Notes: generated by a model not told the origin, from the letters alone. A stretch of 64,000 bases of DNA from a bacterium (GCA_022825065.1 JAJDYR010000037.1:7805-71804); one strand, 5' to 3'; counted from the first letter of the stretch, positions 4,356 to 44,723 are shown. Made by a program: numbers and translations.

Positions 4356-4454
4356 GTAAATTGCCGATCGAATTTGTACGTTGCGTGGTTAAAGCTATAA
4401 CAGATTGTCGAATGACAAATAAAATTCAGTGGTTTAAGCCATATTTTCTCTGAG

Positions 4455-6710: not shown

Positions 6711-6742
6711 ATAACGTATCCGTTATTTTTAAGGAGAATCCA

Positions 6743-7671: not shown

Positions 7672-7745
7672 TGCCCGCTTTGTGATGTCGCCTGTGGCAA
7701 AGCCCGGGCAAATTCGTATCAAGCCGCCCGTAGGATGAGGATGAA

Positions 7746-7913: not shown

Positions 7914-7999
7914 TGTTCCTTCCAAAAAAGGATTCAACGCCCGGTTGAAGTATCAGCCGGGCGTTTCTTTTGTCCTGAAATTTTTGCAGGATACGTGTT

Positions 8000-8872
8000 T
8001 TGCTTCATGAATCGGGGAAAAATGTGATGGCTACGGACGAACAGACGATTCACCATGAAGACGTGCGGGGGCGTATCCTCTCAGCGGATTCGATGACTTA
8101 TTTTGACGAAAGGGTTGGGGAAAGGGACGTTCTCGTTAGTGGTTCCTATGCCGCACGAATGACGATTGCCTGGGCAATGCGCTTGGGGGCGAGAGCAATC
8201 ATTGCCCATGCAGCGGGAGTCGGGAAGGATAATGCGGGGATCAGCGGCTTATCTTTGGCTCAGGAATATCATGTACCTGCGTTGGCGTGTGAAACCATGT
8301 CCGCGAGACTCGCCGTGGGAGAATCCGTGTATGAAGGCGAAGTCGGTCATGCGAATCAAGCGGCTGAAAACCTTGGTGTTGAAATCGGTCAATCCATAGC
8401 AGATGCTTCGGGTTGTTTGCTCGATGCCGAAACGGGCCGGAAAGTAATTGTCGAGGAAAGTCTTGATGATAAAATTTATGAGCTGGAGCAATTTCCGAAT
8501 GGTAATATACGCGCTTCCTGGGGAATTCCCGTCCTGCGTTCTATCAAGGAACCAAGGCCCCAAGATGTTTTTATCCAAGCTTCTCATTGCGGACTTACTC
8601 TTGTCCCTCACGTTATGAAGCTTAGCCTGAAGGGTGTAATTGCGAATGACGCGGGCCGGGGGAAAGATGATTCCGGTATCGCATCTTTCCCCTTTCTGGC
8701 GCGAGAGGGTATCGCGGCGGCGGCGGTTGGCGCGATGAGCGCGCGCATTGGTGATGTGATGAGCACATGGGAAGACGGCGTGATTTCATGCATGAATGAA
8801 GTAGCGGAAAAGCGCGGAGTACGAGAAGGCATGAGGACGCGAGAGGCGGCTCACGCCATGCTCAATCGTTAG
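8000..8872 (+). CDS. Hypothetical protein (no family recognised); start may be ATG at 8027
   Basis: 290-aa ORF at native GC with no competing ORF. No motif recognised. Confidence 0.45.
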   Translation: MLHESGKNVMATDEQTIHHEDVRGRILSADSMTYFDERVGERDVLVSGSYAARMTIAWAMRLGARAIIAHAAGVGKDNAGISGLSLAQEYHVPALACETMSARLAVGESVYEGEVGHANQAAENLGVEIGQSIADASGCLLDAETGRKVIVEESLDDKIYELEQFPNGNIRASWGIPVLRSIKEPRPQDVFIQASHCGLTLVPHVMKLSLKGVIANDAGRGKDDSGIASFPFLAREGIAAAAVGAMSARIGDVMSTWEDGVISCMNEVAEKRGVREGMRTREAAHAMLNR

Positions 8873-8894
8873 GGTTTAACTCAAGAAGCTGCGC

Positions 8895-8970
8895 TGGTGG
8901 AGGTGAGGGGATTCGAACCCCTGACCTCGTGGGTGCGATCCACGCGCTCTCCCATCTGAGCTACACCCCC
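8895..8970 (-). tRNA. tRNA-Ala (anticodon CGC), CCA encoded
   Basis: The reverse complement reads GGGGGTGTAGCTCAGATGGGAGAGCGCGTGGATCGCACCCACGAGGTCAGGGGTTCGAATCCCCTCACCTCCACCA. This folds as a cloverleaf with the G3:U70 identity pair, anticodon loop AU-CGC-AC and T-loop GGTTCGAATCC. Confidence 0.85.
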
Positions 8971-9023
8971 ACAAAAGGAATATGAAGGTAGGCGAAGGAG
9001 CCTCGGGTGTCAAGTGAAAAAGG

Positions 9024-9305
9024 GAGAGCCGATGAAGAGCTCCCCCTAGGAGACTTCACCGGCTCTCGACCTGCCGCAGAGTCCGCCCGTTTCCCCCGCA
9101 GCAGGGAATTCCGCTCGATTTAATGTGGGAGCCGAAGACTCAACCACCGAGGTGTATTATCCCCGGCTCCCGATCCTGCTGCAGAGTCCGCCCGTTTCCC
9201 CCGCAGCAAGAGAATTCACTTTGGTGAGAGTCGGGGAAAAACCCTCCGAGGATTCTCCCCCGACTCTCGTCCCGTCGCAGAGTCCGCCCGTTGCCCCCCC
9301 GACGG
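9024..9305. repeat. Tandem array of 3 x ~100-bp units, each with two hairpins (type B then type A) with conserved loops and covarying stems
   Basis: Type-B hairpins: GAGAGCCG/CGGCTCTC (9024-9067), GGGAGCCG/CGGCTCCC (9127-9171), GAGAGTCGGGG/CCCCGACTCTC (9226-9268). Type-A hairpins at 9070-9105, 9174-9209 and 9270-9305 have a near-invariant loop CAGAGTCCGCCCGTT(T/G)CCCCC and stems TGCTGC/GCAGCA versus CCCGTCG/CGACGGG. Confidence 0.6.
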
Positions 9306-9320
9306 GTAACAACTGATTTT

Positions 9321-12300: not shown

Positions 12301-12929
12301 ACCGATTGGATGAAGCACGCATGCGGCTGGGGACGTTCATAGGCGTTGGTGGAGCGGAGTATTTCCCCGGTTTCGGGGTCGCAATAGAAATGGCCCTGGG
12401 CGGGGCGCGTAATGCCGTAAGCCCAGTGGAGGCCCGTATTGAACCACTGAGGCGAGTTGGGAGCCGCCATCTGGCTCGCAAGTATGTATAAGAGCTCCTC
12501 GTAAAACGCCTTGGCGTCCTCTTCGGTGTGAAAATAACCGTGTTTCCAGCCCCAATACGTCCAGCATCCCGCCAGACGGTGGAAAACGTCCCGCGCGTCT
12601 TGCTCGCTCCCGTATTGCTCATCCTCGGGCAGGGATTCGAGTTTTTCCGTGTCTGGCTCCGAGCGCTGCAGCCACTCGGGCACGCCGTCTTCGGGAATCT
12701 TTTTCAAATGGGCGGGGACGCCGGCTTTCCGGAAGTATTTTTGCGCCAGGATGTCGACGGCCACCTGAGACCAGCTCTCGGGCGCCAGGATGTCCTTCGC
12801 TTCGAAGACGAGCGAGCCGTCCGGGTTCGTGATGCGCGAGGTGCGCGGCGCGAAACCGACCTCGCCGTACGCATCGTCTCCAGCCCGGGTAAAACGCCTC
12901 GTCAACTCCACTTTCAGCCTCCTCCGCAA
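9321..12929 (-). CDS. nrdJ: Class II adenosylcobalamin-dependent ribonucleoside-diphosphate/triphosphate reductase
   Basis: 1202-aa ORF with RNR class II hallmarks (ATP-cone-less N-terminus, active-site region ...[21 protein letters not shown]...) and a C-terminal Cys-rich Zn ribbon CGDCG...CLKCMTCG. Confidence 0.85.
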
Positions 12930-13445: not shown

Positions 13446-13834
13446 CCTGGGCGCGGAAGATCGCCCCCGCTCGACCCGGATCGTCTTCTCCATTTTCTCC
13501 CCTCCTTTCATCGCCGGGAACGATTTCTTTCCCGCGCGGAATTCTCGCCCATGCAGGCGAAAACCCGCTGACGGCAATTGCGGGGAGATGCGTGGTTCCC
13601 AGCGGCCGACCACATCGGCGCGCGCGCCGTCATCGTCCAGGCGCTCGATGAGGAGGCCGGAAATTTCTGCGAGCGCTTCGGCTTCCGCGCGTTCCCGGAT
13701 CGCGAGCCGCTCATGCTGCTGCTGAGGATATCGGATTTAAGGGACATGTTTTAGGGTAGGGCGTGCGCGGATTCGGAGATAGGCGGCTTGGCTCAAGGTT
13801 GGCTGAGCGATGGATTATCGCAGGTACGCTCCGC

Positions 13835-14182
13835 TCAGTCCTGCTCAAGGAGTACGGCCAGCTTTTCGAGCGTCTCGCCCACCACGCGCGGCGGAGCCTG
13901 CGACGCGAGGCGCACGCCTCTGGCGCGCCAGTCGAGGCTCTTCACTTGGTCGGCGAGAACCACGCCCGTAACGGGGCCATCGGTGGGGAGCGCCACCTCG
14001 AAGGGATAGCCCTTGACTCTCGAGGTGATGGGGCACAAGAGCGCGAGGCTGCTTTTCTCGTTATAGCTTCGCGGGCTGACGACCAGCGCGGGTCGGCGGC
14101 CAGTCTGCTCATGCCCGGCCTGGGGGGTGAAGGAAAGCCAGACGATGTCGCCTCTGCCCGGAACGAAGTCCGCGCCCGAAAC
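13835..14182 (-). CDS. mazF: Type II toxin MazF/PemK family endoribonuclease
   Basis: The C-terminal 115 aa of the 190-aa ORF align with E. coli MazF: VSGADFVPGRGDIVWLSFTPQAGHEQTGRRPALVVSP...GYPFEV...VLADQVKSLDWRARG. The likely start is GTG at 14182, so the Arg-rich N-terminal extension is probably not translated. Confidence 0.75.
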   Translation of the reverse strand, partial: VSGADFVPGRGDIVWLSFTPQAGHEQTGRRPALVVSPRSYNEKSSLALLCPITSRVKGYPFEVALPTDGPVTGVVLADQVKSLDWRARGVRLASQAPPRVVGETLEKLAVLLEQD

Positions 14183-14193
14183 CTCCCGTCTCG

Positions 14194-14433
14194 CTACCAC
14201 GCCTCTGCGCCCTGCGCCGGGCCGGCGTCCTGCTCGGCGTGCAGGTTGTCCGCGTTTATTTCGGCGAGCATGTCGGCCAGACGGTAGCCTCTTTTCCTCA
14301 TCACCACCCGGTCGCCGCGCGCGTTCATCTCGATGGCCGAACCCTCGCGCACGCCCCATTGCTCGGCGATGGGCTTCGGGATGCGGACGGCCAGGCTGTC
14401 CCCCCATTTCGCGATATGCGATTTCGCGCCCAT
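14194..14433 (-). CDS. mazE: Type II antitoxin MazE (AbrB/SpoVT fold)
   Basis: 79-aa protein beginning MGAKSHIAKWGDSLAVRIPKPIAEQWGV, which is the MazE/AbrB swapped-hairpin motif. It lies 11 nt upstream of mazF on the same strand. Confidence 0.75.
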   Translation of the reverse strand: MGAKSHIAKWGDSLAVRIPKPIAEQWGVREGSAIEMNARGDRVVMRKRGYRLADMLAEINADNLHAEQDAGPAQGAEAW

Positions 14434-14439
14434 GCGGTT

Positions 14440-14480
14440 ATCCTCCTATCAGGTGTTCATATCTATAATATATATCTTTT
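14440..14480 (-). promoter_or_regulatory. AT-rich alternating-purine/pyrimidine palindromic stretch upstream of mazE (candidate promoter/operator)
   Basis: The sequence catatctataatatatatctttt lies immediately 5' of the mazE start on the minus strand. MazE-MazF complexes are known to autoregulate through palindromic operators. Confidence 0.25.
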
Positions 14481-14582
14481 AGAGGGTGTTGTCGAGGGTG
14501 AGGGTCGGCTGCTCTTCAATACTACCAGCATGTTGATTATTACTCCCCCTTGAGGGGGCTGTTGAAAAAGTCCTCACATCTC

Positions 14583-14690
14583 CCTCATCCTGAGTAGCGG
14601 CGGAGCCGCGTATCGAAGGATGCCCTCTCGCACGCCGGGAGATGCCTCCCATCCTTCGATACGGCGCTTTCGCGCCTACTCAGGATGAGG
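14583..14690. repeat. 108-bp imperfect palindrome (long hairpin; MITE/REP-like)
   Basis: CCTCATCCTGAGTAGCGGCGGAGCCGCGTATCGAAGGATG ... CATCCTTCGATACGGCGCTTTCGCGCCTACTCAGGATGAGG. Confidence 0.5.
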
Positions 14691-14889
14691 TTTTGTGGCC
14701 ACCGGCGCGGCAGGAAGGAGGACCACCGCGTAACCCCCAATTCCGCCCGCGCCGAAACGGGCTTTTTAACAGCTCCGAGGAGGGGGGATTGCCGGAATCC
14801 GGAGCCGATGAATAGTGGAGAAATTTTAGCCCTTCTTTCTCTCAATGACTGAAAAGGAACGACAGCGAAAAAAGAAAAGGATAAATTCC

Positions 14890-14916
14890 CTGGATTCCGG
14901 CGTACGCCGGAATGAC
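14890..14916. repeat. Solo terminal inverted repeat of MITE family 2 (CTGGATTCCGGCGTACGCCGGAATGAC)
   Basis: It matches the right TIR of the complete family-2 copies at 21865-21993 and 26300-26434. A degraded partner (gggattgccggaatccgg) lies about 120 bp upstream. Confidence 0.4.
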
Positions 14917-14978
14917 GGCGAAGAACCACCGGGATAACACGCGGGCCTCGGCTGGTCTCACCGGCGCGCTTGGTGGAT

Positions 14979-15719
14979 TTATCCGTATGTTTCGTTCGTG
15001 CTAAATCGCACCGCTCTCGGCATCTCATCCCACGTTCTGTCGTCAAGCACACGCCCCGTTTTCTTCTTGAACACGCCGCCCCATTGCTTGAAGAAGAAGG
15101 GCGTGCTGCTGTTCACGCAGTTGTCGCGAATCTCCCTCACCCAGTCCGCCTCCATCGGCCTCGCGCCCGGCCCGGACTCACCGCCGACGACCACCCAGTC
15201 GACCCCCGTCAAATTCAAGGCCGGCAAGGGGCCGAGCAGGGGCTCCAAAGAGAGAAACTTCGTCCGCGCGCCGGTTGCCCTGAGCGGCGCCAGACGCCCG
15301 AGCCATTTTTCGGATTCCACGCTCGCGCCGAGCCAGATGTTGGGCGTCCAATTCAGCCTCCGCCCAAGCAGAGCGGCACGGCCCGGCCGCTTGGTGAGCA
15401 CCTGAAACGTGTGCCGGGTCGCGCGGTTCATCACGTCGAAAACGGACTCGATGAAACCGGACGGCACCGATTGATGAAACAGATCGGACATGGAATTGAC
15501 GAAGACGAGGCGCGGCTTCTTCCATCTCAAGGGTTCATCGAGCGAGGAATCGTGTGTGGCGACAGTGAAACCGTTCTCGTACTTCTCGATTCCCATGCCC
15601 TGGAGCCGTCTCGACATCCTCTCGGCGTAGCAATGCTTGCACCCAGGGCTTATCTTCGTACAGCCGGTAACCGGGTTCCAGGTCATCTCGGTCCATTCGA
15701 TACTCGAAATCGTGGACAT
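14979..15719 (-). CDS. DUF5131 / phage Gp37-Gp68 family three-Cys-motif protein
   Basis: The N-terminus WNPVTGCTKISPGCKHCYAE (CX6CX2C) and overall length of 246 aa fit the Gp37/Gp68 family. Regions such as WLGASVESEKW and FFFKQWGG are also present. Confidence 0.75.
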   Translation of the reverse strand: MSTISSIEWTEMTWNPVTGCTKISPGCKHCYAERMSRRLQGMGIEKYENGFTVATHDSSLDEPLRWKKPRLVFVNSMSDLFHQSVPSGFIESVFDVMNRATRHTFQVLTKRPGRAALLGRRLNWTPNIWLGASVESEKWLGRLAPLRATGARTKFLSLEPLLGPLPALNLTGVDWVVVGGESGPGARPMEADWVREIRDNCVNSSTPFFFKQWGGVFKKKTGRVLDDRTWDEMPRAVRFSTNETYG

Positions 15720-15735
15720 GTCTATATGTGTAGCC

Positions 15736-17070
15736 TCACCCGATCTTGAATCGCCAGCGCGCGGCGAGGGCGCTAAGGAGCAACAGACCGAGACTCAAGA
15801 ACGATTGAAGTCCGCCGACGAGGCGCAGGAGCGAGAAGGAAGTAGGTGAAGGTGGAATTTCAGGTGGAGATTTTCCGAGAAGCTGAAAAAGAGACGGGAG
15901 ATCAAAAGCGCCAAACGGGCTAATAATCTGTTCCAAGCTGAAACGAGAAGATAAAAGTAAAATTTCTGTACTTTCCAGACAATCTATTAGCAGCACATTG
16001 AAAAAATTCGCATAAATAGTCGCGAATAGCGCGAAAAAATACATCAGCCATATCAGTGGCCAGATAATGCTTTGTCCATAATCGGAGGCCAGTTCATAGA
16101 GTGACGAAAGGAATTTGATCAGCTTTCTATTTTCAGTGTGATATCTACTTTTCATCTCAAGGGCGTAGAACATCAATTGCTCTTGCCGCGCTCTTTTTTC
16201 CTCCATGTCCAGTTTTAGAGTTCGGTATGCACTAGCTGCTTCATTTCCTTGCCTATCCAAAAACTTGGCGTCAGTGAATTTTGTATCTTGATGAAGTCGA
16301 CAGCCATGAAAACGAGGCGCTTTGTGGAAAGTGCAATTCTTAAAGCTGGTTTCTTGCCGAAATTTCCGGTTGTCGAAGTTCGCTTCATCTAGAGATTTCG
16401 CACCAGAAAAATTAACCTCTCCTTTAAAAGCTTCCACTTCGTGATTTTTTCCTGAATTCTTAAAATCTACGTGCCATTCAAATTCGGCATTTCTAAAGTC
16501 AATCTTCCCTTCAAAATTGGAATCTGTAAAATCGACGAGGTCATTGAATTTAGTATTGCCGAAGATAGTAAGAGGACCCCTGAATTGGGCATGATTAAAC
16601 AAAGAATCTACTTTAAATTGTGCATGGGTGAATTTGACATTACTTGTGAAATGGGCATCACGGAAGTCCGCAGTATTATGGAATTGAGCATAGGAAAAAT
16701 CTACGAATGGGAATTCTATTCCTCTAAATTCGGGATAGCCTGGGAAAATAACGCCACTTAAATCTAATGTTCCGTACGGTGATGTTTCTAATATATTTCC
16801 CCGACGTCTTGAGATATCCGCATAAAACTCCTCTATTTTGTCAGGAGTCCATCCCCCCTTTGTCGTTAGATTGCCGTTTTCATCTTCAAGTGGCGCGTGG
16901 AAGGGGCACAATTTCTTGCCATCCACATCCATCAAATCACCTTCTTGAAAATCGGACGAAAACTGACACGGAATAATGACTACTGCTTTACCCGATTTTA
17001 CTGTTGTGCCTGCACACGGCATTCCGATTCTCCTCTCCGGGTCACTCAAACCGCCCAAAGAATGACGCAT
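15736..17070 (-). CDS. Pentapeptide-repeat protein with Cys-containing N-terminal region and C-terminal transmembrane helices
   Basis: More than 30 consecutive A(D/N)(L/F)xx-type pentapeptide repeats (AQFHNTADFRDAHFTSNVKFTHAQFKVDSLFNHAQFRG...). The C-terminus is hydrophobic (IIWPLIWLMYFFALFATIYANFF; LQSFLSLGLLLLSALAA). GC is roughly 40% in a 64% GC background. Confidence 0.7.
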   Translation of the reverse strand: MRHSLGGLSDPERRIGMPCAGTTVKSGKAVVIIPCQFSSDFQEGDLMDVDGKKLCPFHAPLEDENGNLTTKGGWTPDKIEEFYADISRRRGNILETSPYGTLDLSGVIFPGYPEFRGIEFPFVDFSYAQFHNTADFRDAHFTSNVKFTHAQFKVDSLFNHAQFRGPLTIFGNTKFNDLVDFTDSNFEGKIDFRNAEFEWHVDFKNSGKNHEVEAFKGEVNFSGAKSLDEANFDNRKFRQETSFKNCTFHKAPRFHGCRLHQDTKFTDAKFLDRQGNEAASAYRTLKLDMEEKRARQEQLMFYALEMKSRYHTENRKLIKFLSSLYELASDYGQSIIWPLIWLMYFFALFATIYANFFNVLLIDCLESTEILLLSSRFSLEQIISPFGAFDLPSLFQLLGKSPPEIPPSPTSFSLLRLVGGLQSFLSLGLLLLSALAARWRFKIG

Positions 17071-17149
17071 CTTGCAGTCTATCGTAAAGCGTTATTGGCC
17101 TCACCGGGGATTCATTTCTTCAAAAGAATGGAGTGGAAATTAGTACACA

Positions 17150-17407
17150 CTACAAACCCAAATCCTCGAACAACTCCTCGGCGCCATCGAAGTGCTTTCC
17201 CTTGCCTTCGTCCAACTCCTTCATCGCCTTGCGGGTGGCGGGGTTCGGCGCGCGGACGACGAAGGGCAGCCTACGCTCCTCCGCCACGCGCATCATGAGC
17301 AGGCGAATCGCATCGGAGACGGAAAGGCCCATCGCGTTCAAAGCTTCTGTGGCGCGGGCCTTGGTCTCGCTGTCGATTCTGGCGCGCACGACCGTATCGG
17401 TTGGCAT
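17150..17407 (-). CDS. dinJ: RelB/DinJ-family type II antitoxin (orphan)
   Basis: 85-aa protein MPTDTVVRARIDSETKARATEALNAMGLSVSDAIRLLMMRVAEERRLPF with the RHH/DinJ signature. No RelE/YafQ toxin ORF lies in the 79-nt gap downstream. Confidence 0.7.
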   Translation of the reverse strand: MPTDTVVRARIDSETKARATEALNAMGLSVSDAIRLLMMRVAEERRLPFVVRAPNPATRKAMKELDEGKGKHFDGAEELFEDLGL

Positions 17408-17499
17408 GTCATGCCCTCCTCTTACGTAGCCTCATTGTAGCTACAGCACCTTTTCTCTCTTGTCAAGACTGAATCCGAGTGGTTCTGTCTGAATTCCTC

Positions 17500-17625
17500 T
17501 CCCATTCGGCATCGGCGCGGAACCTGGGTCTAATGGGCGCGGTTTATCGCTTTTGGAACGCCTAATCCGAAGGAGAAAACATGGCGGCGTATGACGTGAC
17601 GGTTATCGGTGGTGGTTCCTACGAT
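17500..17625 (+). repeat. Left copy of a diverged ~115-bp direct repeat duplicating the lpdA upstream region and first 12 codons (partner at 20090-20215)
   Basis: cccattcggcatcggcgcggaacctgggtctaatgggcgcgg...aaggagaaaacATGGCGGCGTATGACGTGACGGTTATCGG is about 80% identical to the native lpdA 5' region. Confidence 0.7.
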
Positions 17626-17649
17626 TTGGTCCGGATCAAAGCGAGGTGA
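17581..17649 (+). pseudogene. Truncated duplicate of the lpdA 5' end (MAAYDVTVIGGGSYDLVRIKAR*)
   Basis: The first 12 codons match lpdA (MAAYDVAVIGGG), then the sequence diverges into a stop. Confidence 0.6.
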
Positions 17650-17882
17650 AGGAACTGCCATATCGAGGAGCGCCGTCGCCTCCTCGCGCCGGGCAAAACC
17701 GTATGGCAAACGCTCGTCAAAGAACGCATCAAATACTGAGGATGAATTCGTCCTTGTACATGGTGAAGTGAACTTCCGAAAGAAAATCCATGCCGAGCAA
17801 TAGGTCAAAATTAGGGAATTATATACGAAAGTGCCGAAGTCTCATTTTCATCTTTGCTATTAACAATGCGAAAGCGTTGCTT

Positions 17883-18044
17883 TCAAGGCTTTTCCACATA
17901 CTCGACATTTACAGATTTCGTTGGTGCTTCTACTGCTTGATCAAAAGTTGCGTCTATTCGTAAGTCTGATTCCAATTCAGATTTACTTGGCTGATAACTA
18001 GGTTTTACAATTTTAATCGTAGATTTCTCCTTTTTATCTGTCAT
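17883..18044 (-). CDS. Small hypothetical protein (53 aa) at the distal end of the low-GC insertion operon
   Basis: ATG start with a GGGAG RBS. Product MTDKKEKSTIKIVKPSYQPSKSELESDLRIDATFDQAVEAPTKSVNVEYVEKP. Below the ORF-track size cut-off. Confidence 0.2.
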   Translation of the reverse strand: MTDKKEKSTIKIVKPSYQPSKSELESDLRIDATFDQAVEAPTKSVNVEYVEKP

Positions 18045-18124
18045 TATTTTCTCCCATCTCTTTACTAAGGAGGTTAGGGAAGGTCGCTTACGATGAACGT
18101 AGGCGACCTTCCCTAACCTCTACT

Positions 18125-18745
18125 TCAACGATACATCCTCTTCAGTATCTCCGCATCGATGGGCGGAAGCGTATCGCCAGTATGCCGTACGGCAAACCTA
18201 TGATTCATCACAGACTTTGGGAATGATTCATGTTCTACATGACCCTGTATGCCGAGGGCATGGAGGAGTTCATGTAGAGCCATAGTCCATAAAAAATCTG
18301 TTTGCTCTTTCGCGTAAGTGTCTGCGATGTAGATTGTGCTGGATTTAGTGTGGCCGCTATCAAAGTCGAGTATGCTGTCAGCGCAGCCGAATCTTTCACC
18401 TGCACAGTCATCACTAAAAGTGTCTCCGTGTTGCACTAACTTAACGATGATGCTGACTTCTTGGTCAAATTTCACTGTACGAATTTTGTGCTCTGGTGGA
18501 AGTTCTTTGTTGACCAGTGTTATAGCACGGGCTATAGCCGTCGCCGCATTCTCTGCGGTCGTATCTTTAGCTTTCAAACGTTTGATAAAATCTATATCGA
18601 ATGTAAGTGTCGGCTCTTTCGCATGGGGGTAAAGGCCGCCGTTTAAGGCGGACTGTTCCACCTGTGCGATATACGTAGCTATAGGTGTGGTGGCGTTACA
18701 AGCAGTAATTAATGCCGCTAATAGAATGCTAAAAATGATGAGCAT
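18125..18745 (-). CDS. Lipoprotein with metzincin-type zinc-peptidase motif (HExxHxxGxxH)
   Basis: Signal peptide plus lipobox MLIIFSILLAALITAC. The motif ALHELLHALGIQGHVEH is present near the C-terminus. Low GC. Confidence 0.5.
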   Translation of the reverse strand: MLIIFSILLAALITACNATTPIATYIAQVEQSALNGGLYPHAKEPTLTFDIDFIKRLKAKDTTAENAATAIARAITLVNKELPPEHKIRTVKFDQEVSIIVKLVQHGDTFSDDCAGERFGCADSILDFDSGHTKSSTIYIADTYAKEQTDFLWTMALHELLHALGIQGHVEHESFPKSVMNHRFAVRHTGDTLPPIDAEILKRMYR

Positions 18746-18748
18746 GTC

Positions 18749-19120
18749 TCATAACCTTTTTCTTCTTGACTTAGAATGTCTTTTCTGCTTTTTCCAAAAA
18801 TCACCTAAAGCCTCAAAATATCTCCCTGTATTACGAACACAAAGATCGTCAGGATGTGCCGAAGGAGCAAAATTTGCTAGAGTTTTATCAAGTAATGTCC
18901 ATGATCCAGTTTTCCTCGAACTATAAATGAGAATATCTGGCTCTGGTTCACCGTTTTCAGTATAAAGCTTCATCATGAGTGTTTGCTTTTTTACATGTTC
19001 CATATATTGCTTCATCTCATTTTCAGATAAACATAACATCAATCTTCCTTGAGAAAAGTTATTGTCAAAAACAATTATCAAGCCAATTAGGACAACAAAA
19101 ACTATCAGCACTTTCTTCAT
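18749..19120 (-). CDS. Small membrane-anchored hypothetical protein
   Basis: N-terminal TM helix MKKVLIVFVVLIGLIIVF, then a basic C-terminus. Low GC, with a 3-nt gap to the downstream gene. Confidence 0.4.
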   Translation of the reverse strand: MKKVLIVFVVLIGLIIVFDNNFSQGRLMLCLSENEMKQYMEHVKKQTLMMKLYTENGEPEPDILIYSSRKTGSWTLLDKTLANFAPSAHPDDLCVRNTGRYFEALGDFWKKQKRHSKSRRKRL

Positions 19121-19172
19121 GTAAAATCCCTCTTGGAGAATAACGATGCCTGTTATTTTAATTGCCTATGAC

Positions 19173-19595
19173 CTAAATCATGAATCTCCATCTGATAGCC
19201 CGCGAATGGCAGATATTATTAATATATAATTCCCCAAAATTATTGGGCTGGAACGGAAGCAGGGAAACTTCAATTTCCTTGCCTCGCAGATTGAGCCATG
19301 GGCCGGCTCCTCCCCCCGATGTCTCCAGTTGATCTCCAATCGGGATATCGACCCTGACCCTGTATTTTTCCGTTTGGATTGGATCCCCGCTGACGGGGAT
19401 GATATCGGTAAAACCGATGCTGGACAGTTTCCCTTCATCGACCACCTTCTGAGATATCATGGTGCCTTGCGCGCCCGTATCCAGTATTGCCGGATAAGAT
19501 TTGGGCTTTGTCCGCGCCGACGGCGGGCTCCCGATCGAAATGGCGGCAAACAGGCGGATTTCCCTGTTTTCCACCCGCCCTCGAAACGTAGGCAT
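19173..19595 (-). CDS. Retropepsin-like (clan AA) aspartic protease
   Basis: 140-aa protein with the catalytic motif AILDTGAQGTMIS (DTGA) and a C-terminal hydrophobic motif as in bacterial retropepsin-like proteins. Confidence 0.6.
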   Translation of the reverse strand: MPTFRGRVENREIRLFAAISIGSPPSARTKPKSYPAILDTGAQGTMISQKVVDEGKLSSIGFTDIIPVSGDPIQTEKYRVRVDIPIGDQLETSGGGAGPWLNLRGKEIEVSLLPFQPNNFGELYINNICHSRAIRWRFMI

Positions 19596-19612
19596 TCAGG
19601 GTTTTGTCGACT

Positions 19613-19888
19613 TCAGGATTTGGGTAGGCACATGGTGAAAACGCCGAGAGATATCGGCGGTTCACCAATTTTTTCGATTGAAAAATTTCCGAGACCGAAT
19701 TTCTCACAACCTATCGCATATGCGTCACCGCTATCGTCATAAATCTCAACAATTTCTCCGTCATGGAGCAATGCCGCCCTTCCGAAGTGTTCGGCCTCCA
19801 TTTCTTCCTTTATGGCGTTGTACGCAGCCCGGTTCTTGTGAAGCTGTGAGTTCATCTTCCTACCCTCCCGCAAGCAGGCGAATCTCAA
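19613..19888 (-). CDS. Small hypothetical protein, first gene of the low-GC insertion operon
   Basis: 91-aa ORF (possible internal start MNSQLHK...), 17 nt upstream of the protease gene. Region ...AALLHDGEIVEIYDDSGDAYAIGCEKFG... Confidence 0.35.
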   Translation of the reverse strand: MRFACLREGRKMNSQLHKNRAAYNAIKEEMEAEHFGRAALLHDGEIVEIYDDSGDAYAIGCEKFGLGNFSIEKIGEPPISLGVFTMCLPKS

Positions 19889-20089
19889 CTGCCAAGGGGC
19901 TAAAAATCATGGCACATATTGAGCCGGATGTTAAGTCTGTAAATATGGATGACTGCCCCGGTCGCCAGGGGCAAGCGCCAATGCCCGCCGGAATCATCAG
20001 CATCCCAAAACGTAAAGCCTCCATCAGAACGCAGCCACTCCCGCCAGCCCCCGCTCCAGGCAAACCCCGCTTCACCACCCCAACCCCTC

Positions 20090-20215
20090 CCCCCATTTGG
20101 CATGAGCGCGGAACCTTGGTCTAATGGGCGCGGTTTTGTTCGTGGAGCGCCTTACCCGAAGGAGGAAGCATGGCGGCGTATGACGTGGCGGTTATCGGCG
20201 GCGGCCCTGCGGGCT
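20090..20215 (+). repeat. Right copy of the ~115-bp direct repeat (native lpdA 5' region)
   Basis: ccccatttggcatgagcgcggaaccttggtctaatgggcgcgg...aaggaggaagcATGGCGGCGTATGACGTGGCGGTTATCGG. Confidence 0.7.
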
Positions 20216-34101: not shown

Positions 34102-34256
34102 CTGGTCATACCGGTGGGCGAGAGACATCTGGAGATTCGCATACGCCGCGTCTCATCGTCAACGCGGCGCGTCCTCGTGGTTTACAGCCCGTTCCGGGCG
34201 GATTAAGATTCCCCTCGCTGGTGATTATTGACTCGATGATCCGGAGGTTTTCCCCG

Positions 34257-34802
34257 ATGAGATGGAGCAGGTGTCATTTGAAGCGAACTTTGCGCTTGGT
34301 GGTGACGGCGCTCGCTTTCGTATTCATGAGTGTGAGCGTGGCGGCGGCGCCTTTCGATGAGAACCGCCCCAAGGTGGGGGAGGAGGCGCGCGAGTTCGAA
34401 ATTCAGGGCTTCAAGCTGTCCGACCTCAAGGGCAGGAAAAATCTCGTGATGGTCTTCTATCGGGGCCACTTCTGAGTCATTTGCCAGCGGCAACTCGTCG
34501 AGTTCCAGAGATTTTCCGAAAAAATTCATCGGCTGCAGACCGAAATCGTCGCCGTCAGCGCGGACAATGCGCTTGAAATGAACAGGACGACGCGGGAGTT
34601 GGGCATCCGGTATCTGCTGATCTCGGACCCGAAGAAGCGAATCATCCAACACTTCGGGGTGCTGCATCCCAGAGAAGGGATCGCCCGGCCCGCCACCATC
34701 ATCATCGACAAGAGCGGCGTGGTTCGCTACGTTCACGTGGGCAAATACCCCAGCGACCGCCCCTCGGTTCAGCAGGTGATGCAGGCCCTCGCTTTTTTGT
34801 GA
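34257..34802 (+). CDS. Periplasmic thioredoxin-fold TlpA/AhpC-TSA-family protein with in-frame TGA at 34473-34475 (candidate selenocysteine; UxxC motif)
   Basis: ORFs 34221-34475 and 34578-34802 share one frame across a single TGA. Read-through gives ...LSDLKGRKNLVMVFYRGHF-U-VICQRQLVEFQRFSEKI...EIVAVSADN...IRYLLISDP, which aligns with FYPxxFTPVCTxE / WCxxC of AhpC-TSA/TlpA proteins. Signal peptide RTLRLVVTALAFVFMSVSVAAA. Confidence 0.5.
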
Positions 34803-34852: not shown

Positions 34853-36625
34853 ATGAGGATAAAGGAGCAGGACTCAGCGGGCCGGTTCTTGAGGTTTTCC
34901 CTTTGGGCGATGATGCTGGGCCTCACCGCCTTGAGCGCGCCGGACGCCTCCGCCGCGAAAAAAAGAGTTTCTTCAAAAAAAGGGGTCGTCTCGAAGGCCG
35001 CCTTCCAGGCCAGGGTGAAGCGCGCCGTAAAAAGGCAGTGCGTCCGCCCCGGACGCCTTGGTCTTTACATTCGCTCGGTTTCCACGGCGCAGACGCTTTA
35101 TTCCCATAACGCTGCTACAAAGCGGATTCCTGCTTCGAACGTCAAACTCTTCACGGCGGCCGCCGCGCTCGCGAGCCTGGGGCCGGACTACCGCTTCGCC
35201 ACCGATTTTTACGCGAAGGGCAAGGTTCGAGGCGGCGTCCTGCGGGGCGACCTTTATCTCAAGGGCTACGGCGACCCGCTTTTCGTGCATGAAAGGATGC
35301 GCGACTTCGTTCGCCGCCTCAAGCTACGCGGCGTCAGGCGCATCGAGGGCGATCTGGTGGCGGACGATACGTTTTTCGATGAGAAAAAACATGGGCGCGG
35401 GTGGCGCGTGGGCCGCTCCATCCGGCCGTATCTGGCGCCGCACGGCGCATTGTCCCTGAATTTTGGTCTCGCGAACGTGCTCGTGGCTCCGGGCGATAGA
35501 ATCGGCGGCCCGGCCATGGCGAATCTCGAGCCGTCCTCGCGCGCGCTTCGTCTTTGGGCGAAGGTGAAGACCTCGCGCGGCAAGCATCCTAAAATCTGGC
35601 TGGGGCGCCGGCGATCGAAAGGAAGAGACCTCGTTCAGGTGGGCGGCTCGTTTCCGGCGAGAGGCAGGATGAAGACGTACCGGGTGCCCGTTACGGACCC
35701 CACCGCTTTCACCGCCGGTGCGGTCGCCGCCGAAATGGAGAGGCAGGGAATCGCCTTGAAGGGAGGGATACGGCAAGCCGCCACGCCGCCCGATGCGAAG
35801 CTTCTCGTGAGAAACCTCTCGCCGCCCCTGAGCGAAGTGGTGAGCGGGCTCAACAAGTTCAGCAACAATTTCGTGGCCGAACAGGTTCTCAAGACGATGG
35901 GCGCCGAAACGCACGGCGCGCCGGGCACGGCGGAAAAAGGCCTGCGCGTCGTGCGGGATTTCCTGCTCTCCATCGGCGTCTCGGCGAAGGAGATCGCCCT
36001 CGCAGACGGTTCGGGCCTGAGCAGGATGAACCGCGCATCGCCGCGCTCTCTGGCGGTCCTGCTCGAAGCGGCGCACAACGATTTCAGGCTGCGGCCGGAG
36101 TTCATGGCGTCGCTGGCCGTGTTCGGCGTAGACGGGACAGTGAAGAAAAGACGCCGACGCGGAGTCGATTCGCGCCGGGTGCGGGTGAAGACGGGCGTGT
36201 TGAACGGCGTGCGCGCCTTCAGCGGATATGCGGCCGCCGGGAACGGGGAAATTCTCGCTTTCTCTATTCTCATGAACGGAAACGCCTGCCGGCCCAAAAG
36301 CCTCACGGGCGCGCTGGTTCGCTCGATGGTTTCGTTGAAGCGGAATTTTTCAAACCCCGTGAACGCTCATCTCAGGGGGGCTCGCGAGATAATGGCGCGT
36401 CCCATGCCGAAGCCTTCCATCAGAGACGGATGGCGCAGGCGCTCCTCTCCGCGCCCGGACCCGGCCGGAGAGGATGATTTCGAGGAACTCGGTCCGGGAA
36501 TCGTCCCGATCGCCGAATCGCCGCAGGATGACTCCCCCGATGAATCACCCGCAAGGGCGGCTCCGGCGGAAGGGGGCTCCGCATGGCCCTCGAAACGCGA
36601 CCCGGGCGGGCGAAGTCGTGAGTGA
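34853..36625 (+). CDS. dacB: D-alanyl-D-alanine carboxypeptidase/endopeptidase, PBP4 family (peptidase S13)
   Basis: Signal peptide. S13 regions (...GYGDPLF..., ...SNNFVAEQVLKTMGA..., ...LADGSGLSRMN...). Pro/Arg-rich C-terminal extension. Confidence 0.75.
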   Translation: MRIKEQDSAGRFLRFSLWAMMLGLTALSAPDASAAKKRVSSKKGVVSKAAFQARVKRAVKRQCVRPGRLGLYIRSVSTAQTLYSHNAATKRIPASNVKLFTAAAALASLGPDYRFATDFYAKGKVRGGVLRGDLYLKGYGDPLFVHERMRDFVRRLKLRGVRRIEGDLVADDTFFDEKKHGRGWRVGRSIRPYLAPHGALSLNFGLANVLVAPGDRIGGPAMANLEPSSRALRLWAKVKTSRGKHPKIWLGRRRSKGRDLVQVGGSFPARGRMKTYRVPVTDPTAFTAGAVAAEMERQGIALKGGIRQAATPPDAKLLVRNLSPPLSEVVSGLNKFSNNFVAEQVLKTMGAETHGAPGTAEKGLRVVRDFLLSIGVSAKEIALADGSGLSRMNRASPRSLAVLLEAAHNDFRLRPEFMASLAVFGVDGTVKKRRRRGVDSRRVRVKTGVLNGVRAFSGYAAAGNGEILAFSILMNGNACRPKSLTGALVRSMVSLKRNFSNPVNAHLRGAREIMARPMPKPSIRDGWRRRSSPRPDPAGEDDFEELGPGIVPIAESPQDDSPDESPARAAPAEGGSAWPSKRDPGGRSRE

Positions 36626-40710: not shown

Positions 40711-41904
40711 ATGAAAGTGGTTCGCATCTTCATTGCAATCGCATTTTTGGCGACGACGGCGTTCCTCGCCAGCCCGGCATTGTCGGCGAATGAAATCCAC
40801 CTGGGCGGAGCCATCTCCCAGACGGGCCGCTATGCGGAGCCGGCCGGCAGGTTCGTTAATGCCTACAAGCTGTACATCGATCAGCTGAACGCCAAGGGCG
40901 GTCTGCTGGGCAAGAAGATTAAAGTCACTCTCCTGGATGACAAATCGGACAAGCAGACCAGCATCAAGCTCTACGAGAAGCTCATCACGCAGGACAAGGT
41001 CGACATCACGCTCGGCCCCTATTCGAGCGGCATTACCGACGCAGTAGCCAACGTTCTCGAAAGATACAAGTACCCCACGCTGGCGCCGGGCGCCTCCTCG
41101 GGCATCATCTGGAAGAAAGGCAGAAAGTACCTTTTCAACCAGAACGCCATCGCCCAGAACTATCAAAGAGGCGCGATGTTCCTCGCCAAGGAGATCGGCG
41201 TGAAGCGGGTCGCCATCGTCGGCGAAGACAGCCTCTTCCCGCGCCAGTCGGCGGAGGGCGCAGTTCACTGGGCGAAGCATCTCGGCATCAAGGTGGTGCT
41301 GAACGAGAACTATACGCGCAAGCAGACCGACTTCACCGCGCTGCTTCAGAAAATCAAGGCGCGCCGCGCGGAGGCGCTCATCTCGAACAGCTACTTCGCG
41401 GACGCCGTGGCCCAGATTCGCCAGCTTCGCGAACTGAACATCAACCTCAAGATTTTCGCCGGAACCGTCGGCCCGGGCCTGCCCAAGTTCGCCAAGCAGC
41501 TCGGCAACACGGCGGAATACGTGCTGGGCTTCAGCCAGTGGGAGCCGCGCCCCGAGATACTGAAATTCCCGGGAATGAAGCATTTCATCGACTCCTATGT
41601 GAAGCGTCACGGCGTCAAGCCGAACTACCACGCCGGAATCGCCTGGGTGTCGATGCAGATCATGAGCCAGGCGATAACAAAGGCGGGTTCTCATGATCGC
41701 CAGAAGGTCTGGCAGACGCTGCGCACCTCTCAGTTCCAGACTGTCATGGGAAAATGGAAAGTGGACAAGAACAACCTGAACGATCATGACGGCCTGACCT
41801 TCCAGATTCTCGACGGCCAGCGCAAGATCGTCTGGCCGAAGAAGATCGCGGAAGTCCCCTACAAGCTGCCGATGCCCAAATGGAAGGACAGGGCGAAGAA
41901 CTAG
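40711..41904 (+). CDS. Branched-chain amino acid ABC transporter substrate-binding protein (LivK/LivJ family), paralog 1
   Basis: Peripla_BP_6-type: signal peptide, then GGAISQTGRYAEPAGR...LDDKSDKQTSIKLYEKLITQDKVD..GPYSSG. Confidence 0.8.
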   Translation: MKVVRIFIAIAFLATTAFLASPALSANEIHLGGAISQTGRYAEPAGRFVNAYKLYIDQLNAKGGLLGKKIKVTLLDDKSDKQTSIKLYEKLITQDKVDITLGPYSSGITDAVANVLERYKYPTLAPGASSGIIWKKGRKYLFNQNAIAQNYQRGAMFLAKEIGVKRVAIVGEDSLFPRQSAEGAVHWAKHLGIKVVLNENYTRKQTDFTALLQKIKARRAEALISNSYFADAVAQIRQLRELNINLKIFAGTVGPGLPKFAKQLGNTAEYVLGFSQWEPRPEILKFPGMKHFIDSYVKRHGVKPNYHAGIAWVSMQIMSQAITKAGSHDRQKVWQTLRTSQFQTVMGKWKVDKNNLNDHDGLTFQILDGQRKIVWPKKIAEVPYKLPMPKWKDRAKN

Positions 41905-41999
41905 GGAGCCGGCGTGTATGACGCAGGTTGTTCAACCGTAGCGCGTCGTATTGTGATGGCGGCGCAACCTTTGAGCTTCCATAAAGAGGAGGATCGGAG

Positions 42000-43196
42000 A
42001 TGAAGAAAAGCCTTGTTTTGGTTCTCGGCTTTGCTCTCGCCCTCACGGCCGCTCCCTTCGTGGAGAAAGGCTTTGCGGCGGACAAGGTCACGCTGGGGAT
42101 AGCCATTTCGCAGACGGGCCGCTATGCCGAACCCGCCGGGCGTATGGTGAACTCCTACAATCTGTATGTGGACCAGATGAACGCCAAGGGTGGTTGGCTC
42201 GGCAAGAAAATCGATATGATCATCCTGGACGACAAATCGGACAAGCAGACCAGCATCAAGCTGTATGAGAAGTTGATCACGCAGGACAAGGTGGACCTGA
42301 CCATGGGCCCCTACTCGAGCGGCATCACCGACGCAGTGGCGAACGTGCTGGAAAGGTACAAGTACCCCACGCTGGCGCCGGGCGCCGCCTCGGGCATCAT
42401 CTGGAAGAAAGGCCGCAAGTATCTCTTCGACATCATCGCCGTCGCCCAGGACTACCAGAAGGGCGCACTCCACATCGCCAGGGACATCGGCGTGAAACGC
42501 ATCGCCATAATCGGCGAGGACAGCCTCTTCCCGCGCCAGTCGGCGGAAGGCGCCGTGGATTGGGCGAAGAAGCTCGGCCTCAAGGTGGTGCTGAACGAGA
42601 ACTATCCGCGCAAGCAGACCGACTTCACCGCGCTGCTGCAGAAGATCAAGGCGCGCCGCGCGGAGGCGCTCATCTCGAACAGCTACTTCGCGGACGCCGC
42701 GGCGCAGATTCGCCAGCTTCGCGAGCTCAACATCAACCTCAAGATTTTCGCCGGAACCGTCGGCCCGGGCCTGCCCAAGTTCGCCAAGCAGCTCGGCAAC
42801 ACGGCGGAATACGTTCTGGGCTTCAGCCAGTGGGAGCCCAAGCCGGAAATCCTCAAGCGGCCCGGCATGAGGGAGTTCATCGCGGCGTATAAGAAGCGCT
42901 ACGGCGTGGATCCGAACTACCACGCGGGCCAGTCCTATGCGTCCATGCAGGTTTTCGGCGAAGCGGTGAAACGAGCAGGCTCCATTGACAGGGACAAGGT
43001 GTGGAGGACGATGCGCACGATGAGCACCACGACCATCATCGGTCCCTGGAAAGTGGACGACACCAACATGAACAACCACGAGGGCTTGACCTTCCAGATA
43101 CTCGACGGCCAGCGCAAGATCGTGTGGCCCAAGAAGATATCGGAAGTCCCCTACAAGCTGCCGATGCCCAAGTGGAAGGACAGAGCCAAGAACTAG
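42000..43196 (+). CDS. Branched-chain amino acid ABC transporter substrate-binding protein, paralog 2
   Basis: Roughly 75-80% identical to paralog 1, with the same motifs. Confidence 0.8.
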   Translation: MKKSLVLVLGFALALTAAPFVEKGFAADKVTLGIAISQTGRYAEPAGRMVNSYNLYVDQMNAKGGWLGKKIDMIILDDKSDKQTSIKLYEKLITQDKVDLTMGPYSSGITDAVANVLERYKYPTLAPGAASGIIWKKGRKYLFDIIAVAQDYQKGALHIARDIGVKRIAIIGEDSLFPRQSAEGAVDWAKKLGLKVVLNENYPRKQTDFTALLQKIKARRAEALISNSYFADAAAQIRQLRELNINLKIFAGTVGPGLPKFAKQLGNTAEYVLGFSQWEPKPEILKRPGMREFIAAYKKRYGVDPNYHAGQSYASMQVFGEAVKRAGSIDRDKVWRTMRTMSTTTIIGPWKVDDTNMNNHEGLTFQILDGQRKIVWPKKISEVPYKLPMPKWKDRAKN

Positions 43197-43242
43197 GGGC
43201 AGAAGAGATAGACAAAGGTTGTGACAGGGCAGCATATCGGCT

Positions 43243-43280
43243 CCCGCCCCGCGTGCGGTTCCGCGCGGGGCGGGAATTTT
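43243..43280 (+). terminator. Rho-independent terminator after SBP paralog 2
   Basis: CCCGCCCCGCG-tgcggttc-CGCGGGGCGGG followed by AATTTTA. Confidence 0.55.
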
Positions 43281-43526
43281 ACCGCAGGAAAAGTTTTTAA
43301 GGACGGTATTATAATTTGTTGAATAATTCCCTTTGACATCTGAAGCGATATGCGTATCATAACCGACTGTTCAGCAAATCTGGTGGTGCGCATCCGGAAC
43401 TACGCGTGAAGATTGCTTATAAGGAATCATCTGATTGAGCGCGTTGTTGCTGGTAATGCGCAAGCGGTAAATTCATTTTTTTGTTGCAAGGCAGGATTAT
43501 TGTTTTCATTAGGAGGAGTTTAAGAA

Positions 43527-44723
43527 ATGAAGAAATGCTTGGTTTTGGCTCTCGGCTTTGCTCTCGCCCTCACGGCTGCTCCCTTCGTGGAGAAAAGCCA
43601 GGCGATGGACAAGGTCACCCTGGGGATCGCCATTTCGCAGACGGGCCGCTATGCCGAACCCGCCGGACGTATGGTGAACTCCTACAAGCTGTATGTTGAT
43701 CAGGTGAACGCCGGTAAAGGCTGGAACGGCAAGAAAATCGACTTCAGCATCCTGGACGACAAATCGGACAAGCAGACCAGCATCAAGCTGTATGAGAAGC
43801 TGATCACGCAGGACAAGGTGAACCTGACCATCGGTCCCTACTCGAGCGGCATCACCGACGCCGTGGCGAACGTGCTGGAAAGGTACAAGTACCCCACGAT
43901 GGCGCCGGGCGCTTCCTCGGGCATCATCTGGAAGAAAGGCCGCAAATACCTGTTCAACATCATCGCCGTCGCCCAGGACTACCCGAAGGGCGCGATTCAC
44001 AGCGCCAGGGACATCGGCGTGAAGCGCATCGCCATCGTCGGCGAGGACAGCCTCTTCCCGCGCCAGTCGGCGGAAGGCGCCGTGGAGTGGGCGAAGAAGC
44101 TCGGCCTCAAGGTGGTGCTGAACGAGAACTATCCGCGCAAGCAGACCGACTTCACCGCGCTGCTGCAGAAGATCAAGGCGCGCCGCGCGGAGGCGCTCAT
44201 CTCGAACAGCTATTTCGCGGACGCCGCGGCGCAGATTCGCCAGCTTCGCGAACTCAACATCAACCTCAAGATTTTCGCCGGAACCGTCGGCCCCGGCCTG
44301 CCCAAGTTCGCCAAGCAGCTCGGCGACACGGCGGAATACGTTCTGGGCTTCAGCCAGTGGGAGCCCAAGCCGGACATCCTCAAGCGGCCCGGCATGAAGG
44401 AATTCATCGCGGCCTATAAGAAACGCTACGGCGTGAACCCAAACTACCACGCGGGCCAGTCCTATGCGTCCCTGCAGATTTTCGGCGACGCGGTGGCGAA
44501 AGCAGGCTCCGCGGACCGGGAAAAGGTCTGGAAGGCGCTGCGCACCATGAAGACCACGACCATCATCGGTCCCTGGAAAGTGGACGAGAACAACCTGAAC
44601 CAGCATGAGGGCTTGACCTTCCAGATCCTCGACGGCCAGCGCAAGATCGTGTGGCCCAAGAAGATATCGGAAGTTTCCTACAAGCTGCCGATGCCGAAGT
44701 GGAAGGAAAGAGGCAAGAACTAG
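43527..44723 (+). CDS. Branched-chain amino acid ABC transporter substrate-binding protein, paralog 3
   Basis: Roughly 88% identical to paralog 2. Preceded by a 330-bp AT-rich spacer with its own RBS (AGGAGG). Confidence 0.8.
   Translation: MKKCLVLALGFALALTAAPFVEKSQAMDKVTLGIAISQTGRYAEPAGRMVNSYKLYVDQVNAGKGWNGKKIDFSILDDKSDKQTSIKLYEKLITQDKVNLTIGPYSSGITDAVANVLERYKYPTMAPGASSGIIWKKGRKYLFNIIAVAQDYPKGAIHSARDIGVKRIAIVGEDSLFPRQSAEGAVEWAKKLGLKVVLNENYPRKQTDFTALLQKIKARRAEALISNSYFADAAAQIRQLRELNINLKIFAGTVGPGLPKFAKQLGDTAEYVLGFSQWEPKPDILKRPGMKEFIAAYKKRYGVNPNYHAGQSYASLQIFGDAVAKAGSADREKVWKALRTMKTTTIIGPWKVDENNLNQHEGLTFQILDGQRKIVWPKKISEVSYKLPMPKWKERGKN

Follow-up and report, generated by a model that had tools for sequence, protein, structure and literature searches.

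A peroxiredoxin-like gene with an in-frame TGA from a Nitrospinota-related bacterium is most probably a UxxC selenoprotein gene of the 'Prx-like 1' family

A 'Prx-like thiol:disulfide oxidoreductase' with a UxxC centre (U, selenocysteine, Sec) was placed among the bacterial selenoprotein families by Zhang et al. 2006 (PMC1794560), and the same name is listed with PF00578 (UxxC/UxxU) in a 2026 review (PMC13188914). In Global Ocean Sampling (GOS) data, Zhang & Gladyshev 2008 (PMC2398784) reported 'Prx-like 1' (pfam00578, UxxC) with 225 selenoprotein reads; its entries in GOS Dataset S1 include ...VVLFYRGHWUPYCRRQL... and ...VIIVFYRGYFUGICRAQLGELSQNH..., and the string YRGHWU occurs there 24 times (PMC2398784). 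Here we analyze a bacterial stretch of 64,000 nucleotides (GCA_022825065.1 JAJDYR010000037.1:7805-71804; the window, to whose first letter all positions refer) and in it the plus-strand gene at 34257-34802, which is interrupted by an in-frame TGA at 34473-34475. Sequence comparison makes it highly probable that this is one functional gene for a secreted, peroxiredoxin-fold UxxC selenoprotein of ∼150 residues belonging to 'Prx-like 1', a family equivalent to the 'Prx-like thiol:disulfide oxidoreductase', and the TGA very probably encodes Sec.

The window protein aligns by BLASTP with the 'Prx-like 1' read JCVI_READ_852987 (29% identity over 120 residues, E 8e-23) and with a second such read (E 6e-13), each with U in register, and by these alignments it is a member of the published selenoprotein family. 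It shares with that family PF00578, the UxxC centre, the signature FYRG[HGY][FW]-U-xx-C, a selenocysteine insertion sequence (SECIS) candidate right downstream and many Cys homologs. The window clade differs in having F rather than W before U and V-I between U and C, in its predicted Sec-type signal peptide for export, in its adjacency to a PBP4 gene and in a minimal hairpin with a 5-bp stem and a GUC triloop. Its close orthologs also lack a selenoprotein annotation in the databases searched.

The gene appears to conventional gene finding as two plus-strand open reading frames (ORFs), 34221-34475 and 34578-34802. An earlier interpretation made from the DNA alone (the sequence-only reading) had proposed that these lie in one frame split by the TGA, and translation of 34221-34802 bears this out: there is exactly one internal stop, TGA 34473-34475, which follows NLVMVFYRGHF and, in its wider setting, stands between KGRKNLVMVFYRGHF and VICQRQLVEFQRF. 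ATG 34257 is the likely start, in preference to GTG 34221 or ATG 34236, because a GGAGG lies 9 nt ahead of it. The N-terminus, MRWSRCHLKRTLRLVVTALAFVFMSVSVAAA followed by P at the predicted cleavage point, looks like a Sec-type signal peptide.

When the stop is replaced by Cys, the read-through product matches PF00578 (AhpC-TSA) over residues 44-159 at 89.2 bits (gathering cut-off 26, E 2.6e-25) and PF08534 (Redoxin) at 73.7 bits (cut-off 26.6), the Redoxin match likewise crossing the stop. The active-site motif then reads FYRGHF-U-VI-C, and in the homolog motif FYRGHW-C-PHC-QRQL the residue opposite the TGA is the first Cys of CxxC. Full-length homologs at 34-39% identity carry FYRG[HG]W-C-P[HPY]-C-Q[RK]Q with Cys in register with the TGA, as the sequence-only reading had anticipated when it placed the stop at the first position of a CxxC-type centre. 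That reading had also described an AhpC-TSA/TlpA layout, of which the AhpC-TSA part stands, with the domain running across the stop, and the TlpA part does not (22.3 bits vs a cut-off of 230).

Conservation of the TGA extends well beyond the window. A genome scan limited to one genome per species returned 79 loci, and in the 78 covered by the codon tally the codon aligned to TGA 34473 is TGA in 64 and TGC/TGT in 14, a distribution over several phyla that is far beyond chance. TGA occupies this codon in all 18 Nitrospinota-labelled genomes of the scan and in loci L001-L009, and also in Binatia and 'delta proteobacterium' metagenome-assembled genomes (MAGs), Myxococcota, Poribacteria, Dehalococcoidia/Chloroflexota and Planctomycetota; the 14 TGC/TGT forms come from Kofleriaceae, Haliangiales, Thermomicrobiales and others. 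Cys is thus found at the homologous position in the protein homologs P0009-P0012 and in 14 genomic loci, which agrees with the pairing expected of a Sec/Cys site in a redoxin family.

The coding sequence on both sides of the TGA is under purifying selection. In six distinct orthologous loci compared as DNA, the TGA is kept in each and the N-terminal half is conserved as protein, with the lowest identity for that half (47-51%) in L003. Between the window and 12 orthologs the ratio of nonsynonymous to synonymous rates (dN/dS) is 0.04-0.37 over the 42 codons before the TGA and 0.10-0.33 over the 108 codons after it, so that the downstream half, whose conservation the sequence-only reading had left to be checked, is conserved with its homologs under a Pfam domain that spans the stop. 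The same six loci keep an SBP_bac_5 ATP-binding cassette (ABC) transporter gene set upstream on the opposite strand and a PBP4-type carboxypeptidase and RecJ downstream. Adjacency to PBP4 holds in all Nitrospinota-clade loci and not in other phyla, and the neighbors in five other phylum-level groups are unrelated, with no conserved context and no hint of a substrate.

The closest named relatives of the window are MAGs labelled Nitrospinota or Nitrospinaceae. Bins with the prefixes SB0662_, COS4_ and RHO1_ are among the relatives, and from the naming of isolates we take several of them to derive from sponge microbiomes. A 104.5-kb scaffold (ENA ERZ23491646 KELL22-1_SAMN22237329_METAG-scaffold_301) was considered as independent support for the contiguity of the window and rejected, as its positions ∼7719-71718 are identical to window 1-64000, which makes it the source of the window.

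Directly after the TGA lies a candidate bacterial SECIS. The sequence-only reading had drawn a 6+6 AACTCG/CGAGTT stem here; a hairpin is present, but that pairing, with a loop of only 1 nt, is ruled out sterically. The stem instead pairs 34492-34496 with 34500-34504 around the GUC triloop at 34497-34499, with an outer pair G34490-C34506, and the triloop begins 21 nt past the UGA. A published model of bacterial SECIS elements (bSECIS; PMC13188914) gives a spacing of 16-37 nt and a minimum free energy (MFE) of ≤ -7.5 kcal/mol. The G-then-U loop, 5-bp stem, 3-nt loop and 21-nt spacing of the window hairpin all fit this model; its energy does not reach the threshold, which is reached in the orthologs L003 (-9.8) and L005 (-7.7). 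A SECIS after the TGA, as the sequence-only reading expected, is therefore supported by position, loop, stem and covariation and not by energy.

Pairing at a fixed register distinguishes Sec from Cys forms. With the loop starting at a distance of 21 nt from the UGA (16 nt in Binatia), at least five consecutive pairs form in 55 of 58 distinct Sec forms vs 5 of 14 Cys forms (Mann-Whitney test on pair counts, p = 7e-5, on sequences that are phylogenetically non-independent), and the loops among the Sec-form hairpins are GUC, GGU, GGC, GUU, GGA or AGUU. Best-hairpin energy does not separate the two groups (p = 0.34), so that the separation comes from fixed-register pair count and covariation only. 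In an alignment of 29 sequences, an 8-pair helix is paired in 81.9% of cells compared with 17-50% in slid controls, five of its eight pairs are altered on both sides, and none of 500 shuffles matches the observed values. In some compensations the change on one side is nonsynonymous; in L003, for instance, CUC has become CUG and its partner GAG has become CAG. Across the Nitrospinota clade (22 distinct sequences), the seven codons +5 to +11 (34488-34508), which cover the hairpin, have a synonymous diversity of ≤ 0.09, compared with 0.3-0.55 in the degenerate codons flanking it.

Like the E. coli fdhF-type SECIS and the bSECISearch consensus, the element sits inside the coding region and has a G[G/U] apical loop; it differs from them in its triloop, its internal C.C mismatch and an energy short of -7.5. 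Some Cys-form loci (L064, L037, L040, L030 and L031, from Haliangium, Kofleriaceae and Myxococcales; ∼3058-3111) carry a 5-7 bp hairpin in the same register after TGC. There the hairpin could have outlasted a recent change from Sec to Cys, or it could result from the Q-[LF]-G-E-L codons.

A second TGA-containing redox gene in the window was claimed by the sequence-only reading, and we recovered it. A scan by GC at codon positions finds 34473 and one other convincing in-frame TGA, 7076-7078; a codon-usage scan of the window for TGA-interrupted genes does not recover even 34473, and the 'GC-stop' end of a gene at 60648 was rejected as an ordinary stop. The second gene, 6743-7408, reads ...AILTECNN-U-IGHNVELG..., placing the TGA at the catalytic position. 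It matches PF02627 (CMD/AhpD) weakly around the motif (22.2 bits), its top NCBIfam match, under cut-off, is 'YciW-related (seleno)protein', and in contigs from other samples it is likewise split, into ORFs of 111 and 105 aa. The hairpin at 7092-7111 also starts its loop 21 nt past the UGA, with an MFE of -18.5 kcal/mol. Gene 6743-7408 is of the known 'AhpD-like CxxU' type with a textbook-looking SECIS, and it supports the argument of the sequence-only reading that the organism decodes Sec. Two selenoprotein genes in 64 kb would fit a lineage with a large selenoproteome; according to BSepDB (PMC13326102), MAGs that bear the label Nitrospinota/Nitrospinae and are assigned by GTDB to phylum UBA8248 have 48-54 selenoprotein genes.

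Granted that the TGA encodes Sec, the function of the protein is the question on which alternatives come closest. The nearest solved structures are peroxiredoxins: a profile search of the PDB returns archaeal BCP/PrxQ-type enzymes first (2ywn/4g2e, 1.3e-22) and then 2cx3, and the BCP/PrxQ and AhpE group (2ywn/4g2e, 2cx3, 3hjp, 1xvw) reaches a profile E of 1e-22 and template-modelling (TM) scores of 0.8-0.85 on target. An AlphaFold (AF2) model of the Cys homolog P0009 (mean predicted local distance difference test score, pLDDT, 83.4) has an unstructured N-terminus of 33 residues, a strand at 68-72, Cys78, equivalent to Sec, in a loop, and a helix from 79 that contains Cys81. As modelled, this geometry is the CxxC arrangement of the thioredoxin fold, and a Foldseek search with the model returns Bcp4, AhpE, BcpB, 2-Cys peroxiredoxins and ResA.

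Several established families were tried and rejected as homes for the protein. The NCBIfam collection has no model at its cut-off for the window protein or for eight members from other phyla. Membership of TlpA/ResA/DsbE fails on score (ResA 47.2 vs 170, TlpA 22.3 vs 230 and DsbE 20.4 vs 123 bits); these are likewise exported thioredoxin-fold proteins with a CxxC centre, and ResA is among both the sequence and the fold matches, but unlike their genes the selenoprotein gene has no cytochrome c maturation genes nearby in the gene tables of the window and orthologous loci. The SelL-related redox protein model (NF040769) is the best NCBIfam match and describes a peroxiredoxin fold with a CxxC/UxxC-type centre rather than T-x-x-C, but only the N-terminal ∼90 residues align, and the score falls short (68 bits vs 120; 44-58 in the other eight members). 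Vertebrate selenoprotein L (UxxU) and CDD PRX_like2 likewise combine a peroxiredoxin fold with a CxxC/UxxC-type centre in place of T-x-x-C. A canonical peroxiredoxin is also rejected: in the signature P-x3-T/S-x2-Cp (Cp, peroxidatic Cys) Arg stands in for Pro and Sec/Cys for Thr, and the NCBIfam peroxiredoxin models score far under their cut-offs, although the window protein retains a Cp-equivalent Cys and an Arg.

The protein could be a true thiol or selenol peroxidase acting on H2O2 or organic hydroperoxides in the periplasm, and we consider this a substantial, if lesser, possibility. Its nearest neighbors in sequence and structure are BCP/PrxQ, AhpE and 2-Cys peroxiredoxins; in the profile-to-PDB alignment Cys76 falls on the peroxidatic Cys (the Cys of FTQVC in 2ywn/2cx3), and the invariant Arg144 is near the catalytic Arg position of peroxiredoxins. 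This retained Cys, the nearby Arg and the peroxiredoxin neighbors keep a peroxidase role plausible. However, the same alignment sets the Sec/Cys position on the Thr of T-x-x-Cp, so that Arg and Sec stand where BCP/PrxQ and AhpE have the catalytic Pro and Thr; Arg144 is one residue off the catalytic position in the hidden Markov model (HMM) alignment, no NCBIfam peroxiredoxin model reaches its cut-off, and UxxC is a dithiol-type centre of the thioredoxin kind in a protein predicted, again in difference from BCP/PrxQ and AhpE, to be exported. With a CxxC-type centre and with the peroxiredoxin Pro and Thr lost, a role as a thioredoxin-like disulfide or sulfenate reductase is somewhat favored over that of a dedicated peroxidase.

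Under this preferred reading, of a Sec-containing thioredoxin-like reductase, translation would start at ATG 34257, and at UGA 34473-34475 the hairpin at 34490-34506 would draw SelB with Sec-tRNA(Sec), so that Sec is inserted instead of termination. The precursor would then be exported by way of its N-terminal signal peptide. Sec73, in the loop just before helix 1, would serve as the exposed nucleophile, with Cys76 in the first turn of that helix, and would reduce a periplasmic oxidant, whether a disulfide, a sulfenic acid or a hydroperoxide. A Sec73-Cys76 selenenylsulfide would form as a result and be recycled by a periplasmic reductant.

Some results weigh against Sec decoding at this gene. 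The window hairpin has an energy of only -4.1 kcal/mol alone and of -5.7 to -7.8 when enforced in contexts of 48-60 nt, and when the 60 nt downstream of the UGA are folded without constraint, the MFE structure is a different one, with a stability no better than that of shuffles (z = 0.17). The hairpin could be partly a by-product of the Q-L-x-E-L/F codons, as 5 of 14 Cys forms retain it. Rfam matched neither the 34490 element nor the textbook-looking one that follows TGA 7076-7078, at either threshold. The genes selA, selB, selC and selD were absent from the window, the fetched loci and the ∼20 kb of reachable flanks (Pfam/NCBIfam on the scanned window genes, gene tables for the flanks), ARAGORN found no tRNA-Sec in the window or 88 related loci, and a literature search gave no link between the window lineage and UBA8248. 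A search for the SelD motif G[C/U]GCK in 645 kb of sequence was also negative, and the only tRNAs in the window are tRNA-Ala and tRNA-Met. Because no Sec machinery was seen in the sequence searched, we infer the Sec-decoding trait of the organism.

The missing machinery and the energetically weak hairpin would suit another form of recoding, in which a near-cognate or suppressor tRNA (Trp, Cys or Gly) reads the TGA in a host that lacks Sec machinery. We regard this as very unlikely. TGA is the commonest ordinary stop in the window, ending 20 of its 48 predicted genes (TAG 17, TAA 11), and there is therefore no genome-wide UGA reassignment. The recoded site coincides exactly with the position of the redox Cys, where Sec is usually found, a SelB-type G[G/U] loop follows at 21 nt, as in gene 6743-7408, and the family is catalogued as a selenoprotein family.

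Still less probable is a pair of separate products, a 72-residue exported peptide and a 108-residue C-terminal protein whose translation re-initiates at the codon that follows the TGA. Such a start is suggested by several orthologs in which this codon is GTG and gene callers begin a gene there; the codon is GTC in the window, however, and GCG, GGG, AGT or CCG elsewhere, and the split would divide both the Pfam domain and the CxxC centre, leaving the C-terminal piece without a signal peptide and without the first active-site residue. The databases present the gene in two parts: in NCBI, ENA and Logan records its close orthologs consist of a 65-75-aa ORF and a 99-108-aa 'peroxiredoxin family protein', and a protein search finds close relatives only as C-terminal fragments of 99-108 residues starting just after the stop. 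In the public annotation of P0006, P0008 and L001-L009, the start of the 99-108-aa protein is set at the codon next to the TGA or close to it, and the upstream ORF of 65-75 aa is left unannotated.

That a nonsense TGA, or an assembly or sequencing error, has inactivated an ordinary CxxC redoxin gene is the least credible account, for although gene callers and NCBI annotation give two ORFs or a truncated 107-108-aa 'peroxiredoxin family protein', the same TGA recurs in independent assemblies of other samples and in 64/78 loci from several phyla, and is followed by a position-conserved, covarying hairpin, and it is not a lesion because it is conserved in orthologs with dN/dS well below 1 on both sides, in line with the argument of the sequence-only reading that a coincidental nonsense mutation is improbable.

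The coordinates of the gene, its putative signals and its downstream neighbor are collected in Table 1 together with those of the second gene.

Table 1. Features of the Prx-like gene, its surroundings and the second TGA-containing gene, in window coordinates
Feature	Position	Strand	Remarks
AhpD/CMD-like selenoprotein gene candidate	6743-7408	+	TGA 7076-7078, motif TECNN-U-IGH (CxxU)
Putative SECIS of gene 6743-7408	7092-7111	+	8-bp stem, loop GGUC 7100-7103
Promoter-like TTTACA-17-TAAGAT, 5' of gene	34181-34209	+	Weak, by consensus match only; putative function
Shine-Dalgarno-like GGAGG	34243-34247	+	9 nt 5' of ATG 34257; read from sequence
Predicted Prx-like selenoprotein coding sequence, complete	34257-34802	+	181 residues including Sec73; terminal stop TGA 34800-34802
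Predicted Sec-type signal peptide	34257-34349	+	MRWSRCHLKRTLRLVVTALAFVFMSVSVAAA, then P; basic n-region, hydrophobic core, AAA cleavage motif
In-frame UGA, predicted selenocysteine codon	34473-34475	+	Residue 73, first position of U-V-I-C; aligned to first Cys of CxxC homologs
Cys76 codon TGC, putative resolving Cys of UxxC	34482-34484	+	Invariant in family alignment; profile-to-PDB alignment
Candidate bacterial SECIS	34490-34506	+	G-C pair, C.C mismatch, 5 bp AACUC/GAGUU, GUC triloop
Arg144 codon	34686-34688	+	Invariant G-I-A-R-P motif; near catalytic Arg position of peroxiredoxins
PBP4-type D-Ala-D-Ala carboxypeptidase gene	34853-36625	+	50 nt 3' of selenoprotein gene; TIGR00666 match

The promoter-like site is the only one found, vs 0.3 expected in shuffles. 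The downstream gene matches TIGR00666 (PBP4) at 261.9 bits (cut-off 107.8), and a terminator-like site sought on the plus strand in the gap between the two genes was not found; the PBP4 gene is probably co-transcribed with the selenoprotein gene.

Domain architecture varies by phylum among family members, as seen in L069 (2335-3444), L075 (2344-3444), L082 (2665-3483), L085 (2743-3513) and L029 (2983-3567). Outside the clade of the window, N-termini bear signal peptides, lipoboxes, transmembrane anchors or long extensions, with the exception of Binatia. Poribacteria members have an N-terminal extension of ∼220 residues with a weak S-layer-like match, and in Planctomycetota the N-terminus contains transmembrane segments. 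The Binatia proteins lack a signal peptide and end in a basic tail of ∼40 residues, and their SECIS loop, AGUU, lies 16 nt after the UGA.

Elsewhere in the window, 13800-20100 is a low-GC island (45-58% vs ∼63% elsewhere) with MazF/MazE, RelB, DUF5131, a pentapeptide-repeat protein and a matrixin-like ORF; its content varies by sample, L089 having a TacA/GNAT pair in place of MazEF, and it looks like a variable toxin-antitoxin/mobile island. GC is also lower over 1-12000 (∼51%). The minus-strand gene 9321-12929 is for a class II (B12-dependent) ribonucleotide reductase (1202 aa) with a C-terminal TSCPD domain; its match to the Pfam barrel domain is broken into two parts, between which an insertion or an intein could lie. 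The plus-strand region 40711-44723 holds an ordinary set: three paralogous Peripla_BP_6 (branched-chain amino-acid-type) binding-protein genes in tandem, then permease and ATPase genes.

The locus adds no new biology beyond the family described in 2005-2008, and its practical value lies mainly in annotation, since public records wrongly split what is most probably one selenoprotein gene into two. Automatic pipelines keep missing the selenocysteine because no NCBIfam model reaches cut-off for this subfamily. What departs most from the ordinary is the SECIS of the clade, which is very small and lies below the energy threshold of standard predictors. It is possible, though on present evidence rather doubtful, that Nitrospinota-clade copies work with a minimal element of 5 bp, a C.C mismatch, a GUC triloop and about -4 kcal/mol. 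Should so small an element be enough for SelB, it would set the lower limit of what can serve as a bacterial SECIS and would help to explain the ∼13% of catalogued bacterial selenoprotein genes without a 'canonical' SECIS. As a weaker possibility, the conserved pairing with PBP4 may indicate that these bacteria, probably symbionts of sponges, have a redox step that depends on selenium in their periplasmic cell-wall compartment.

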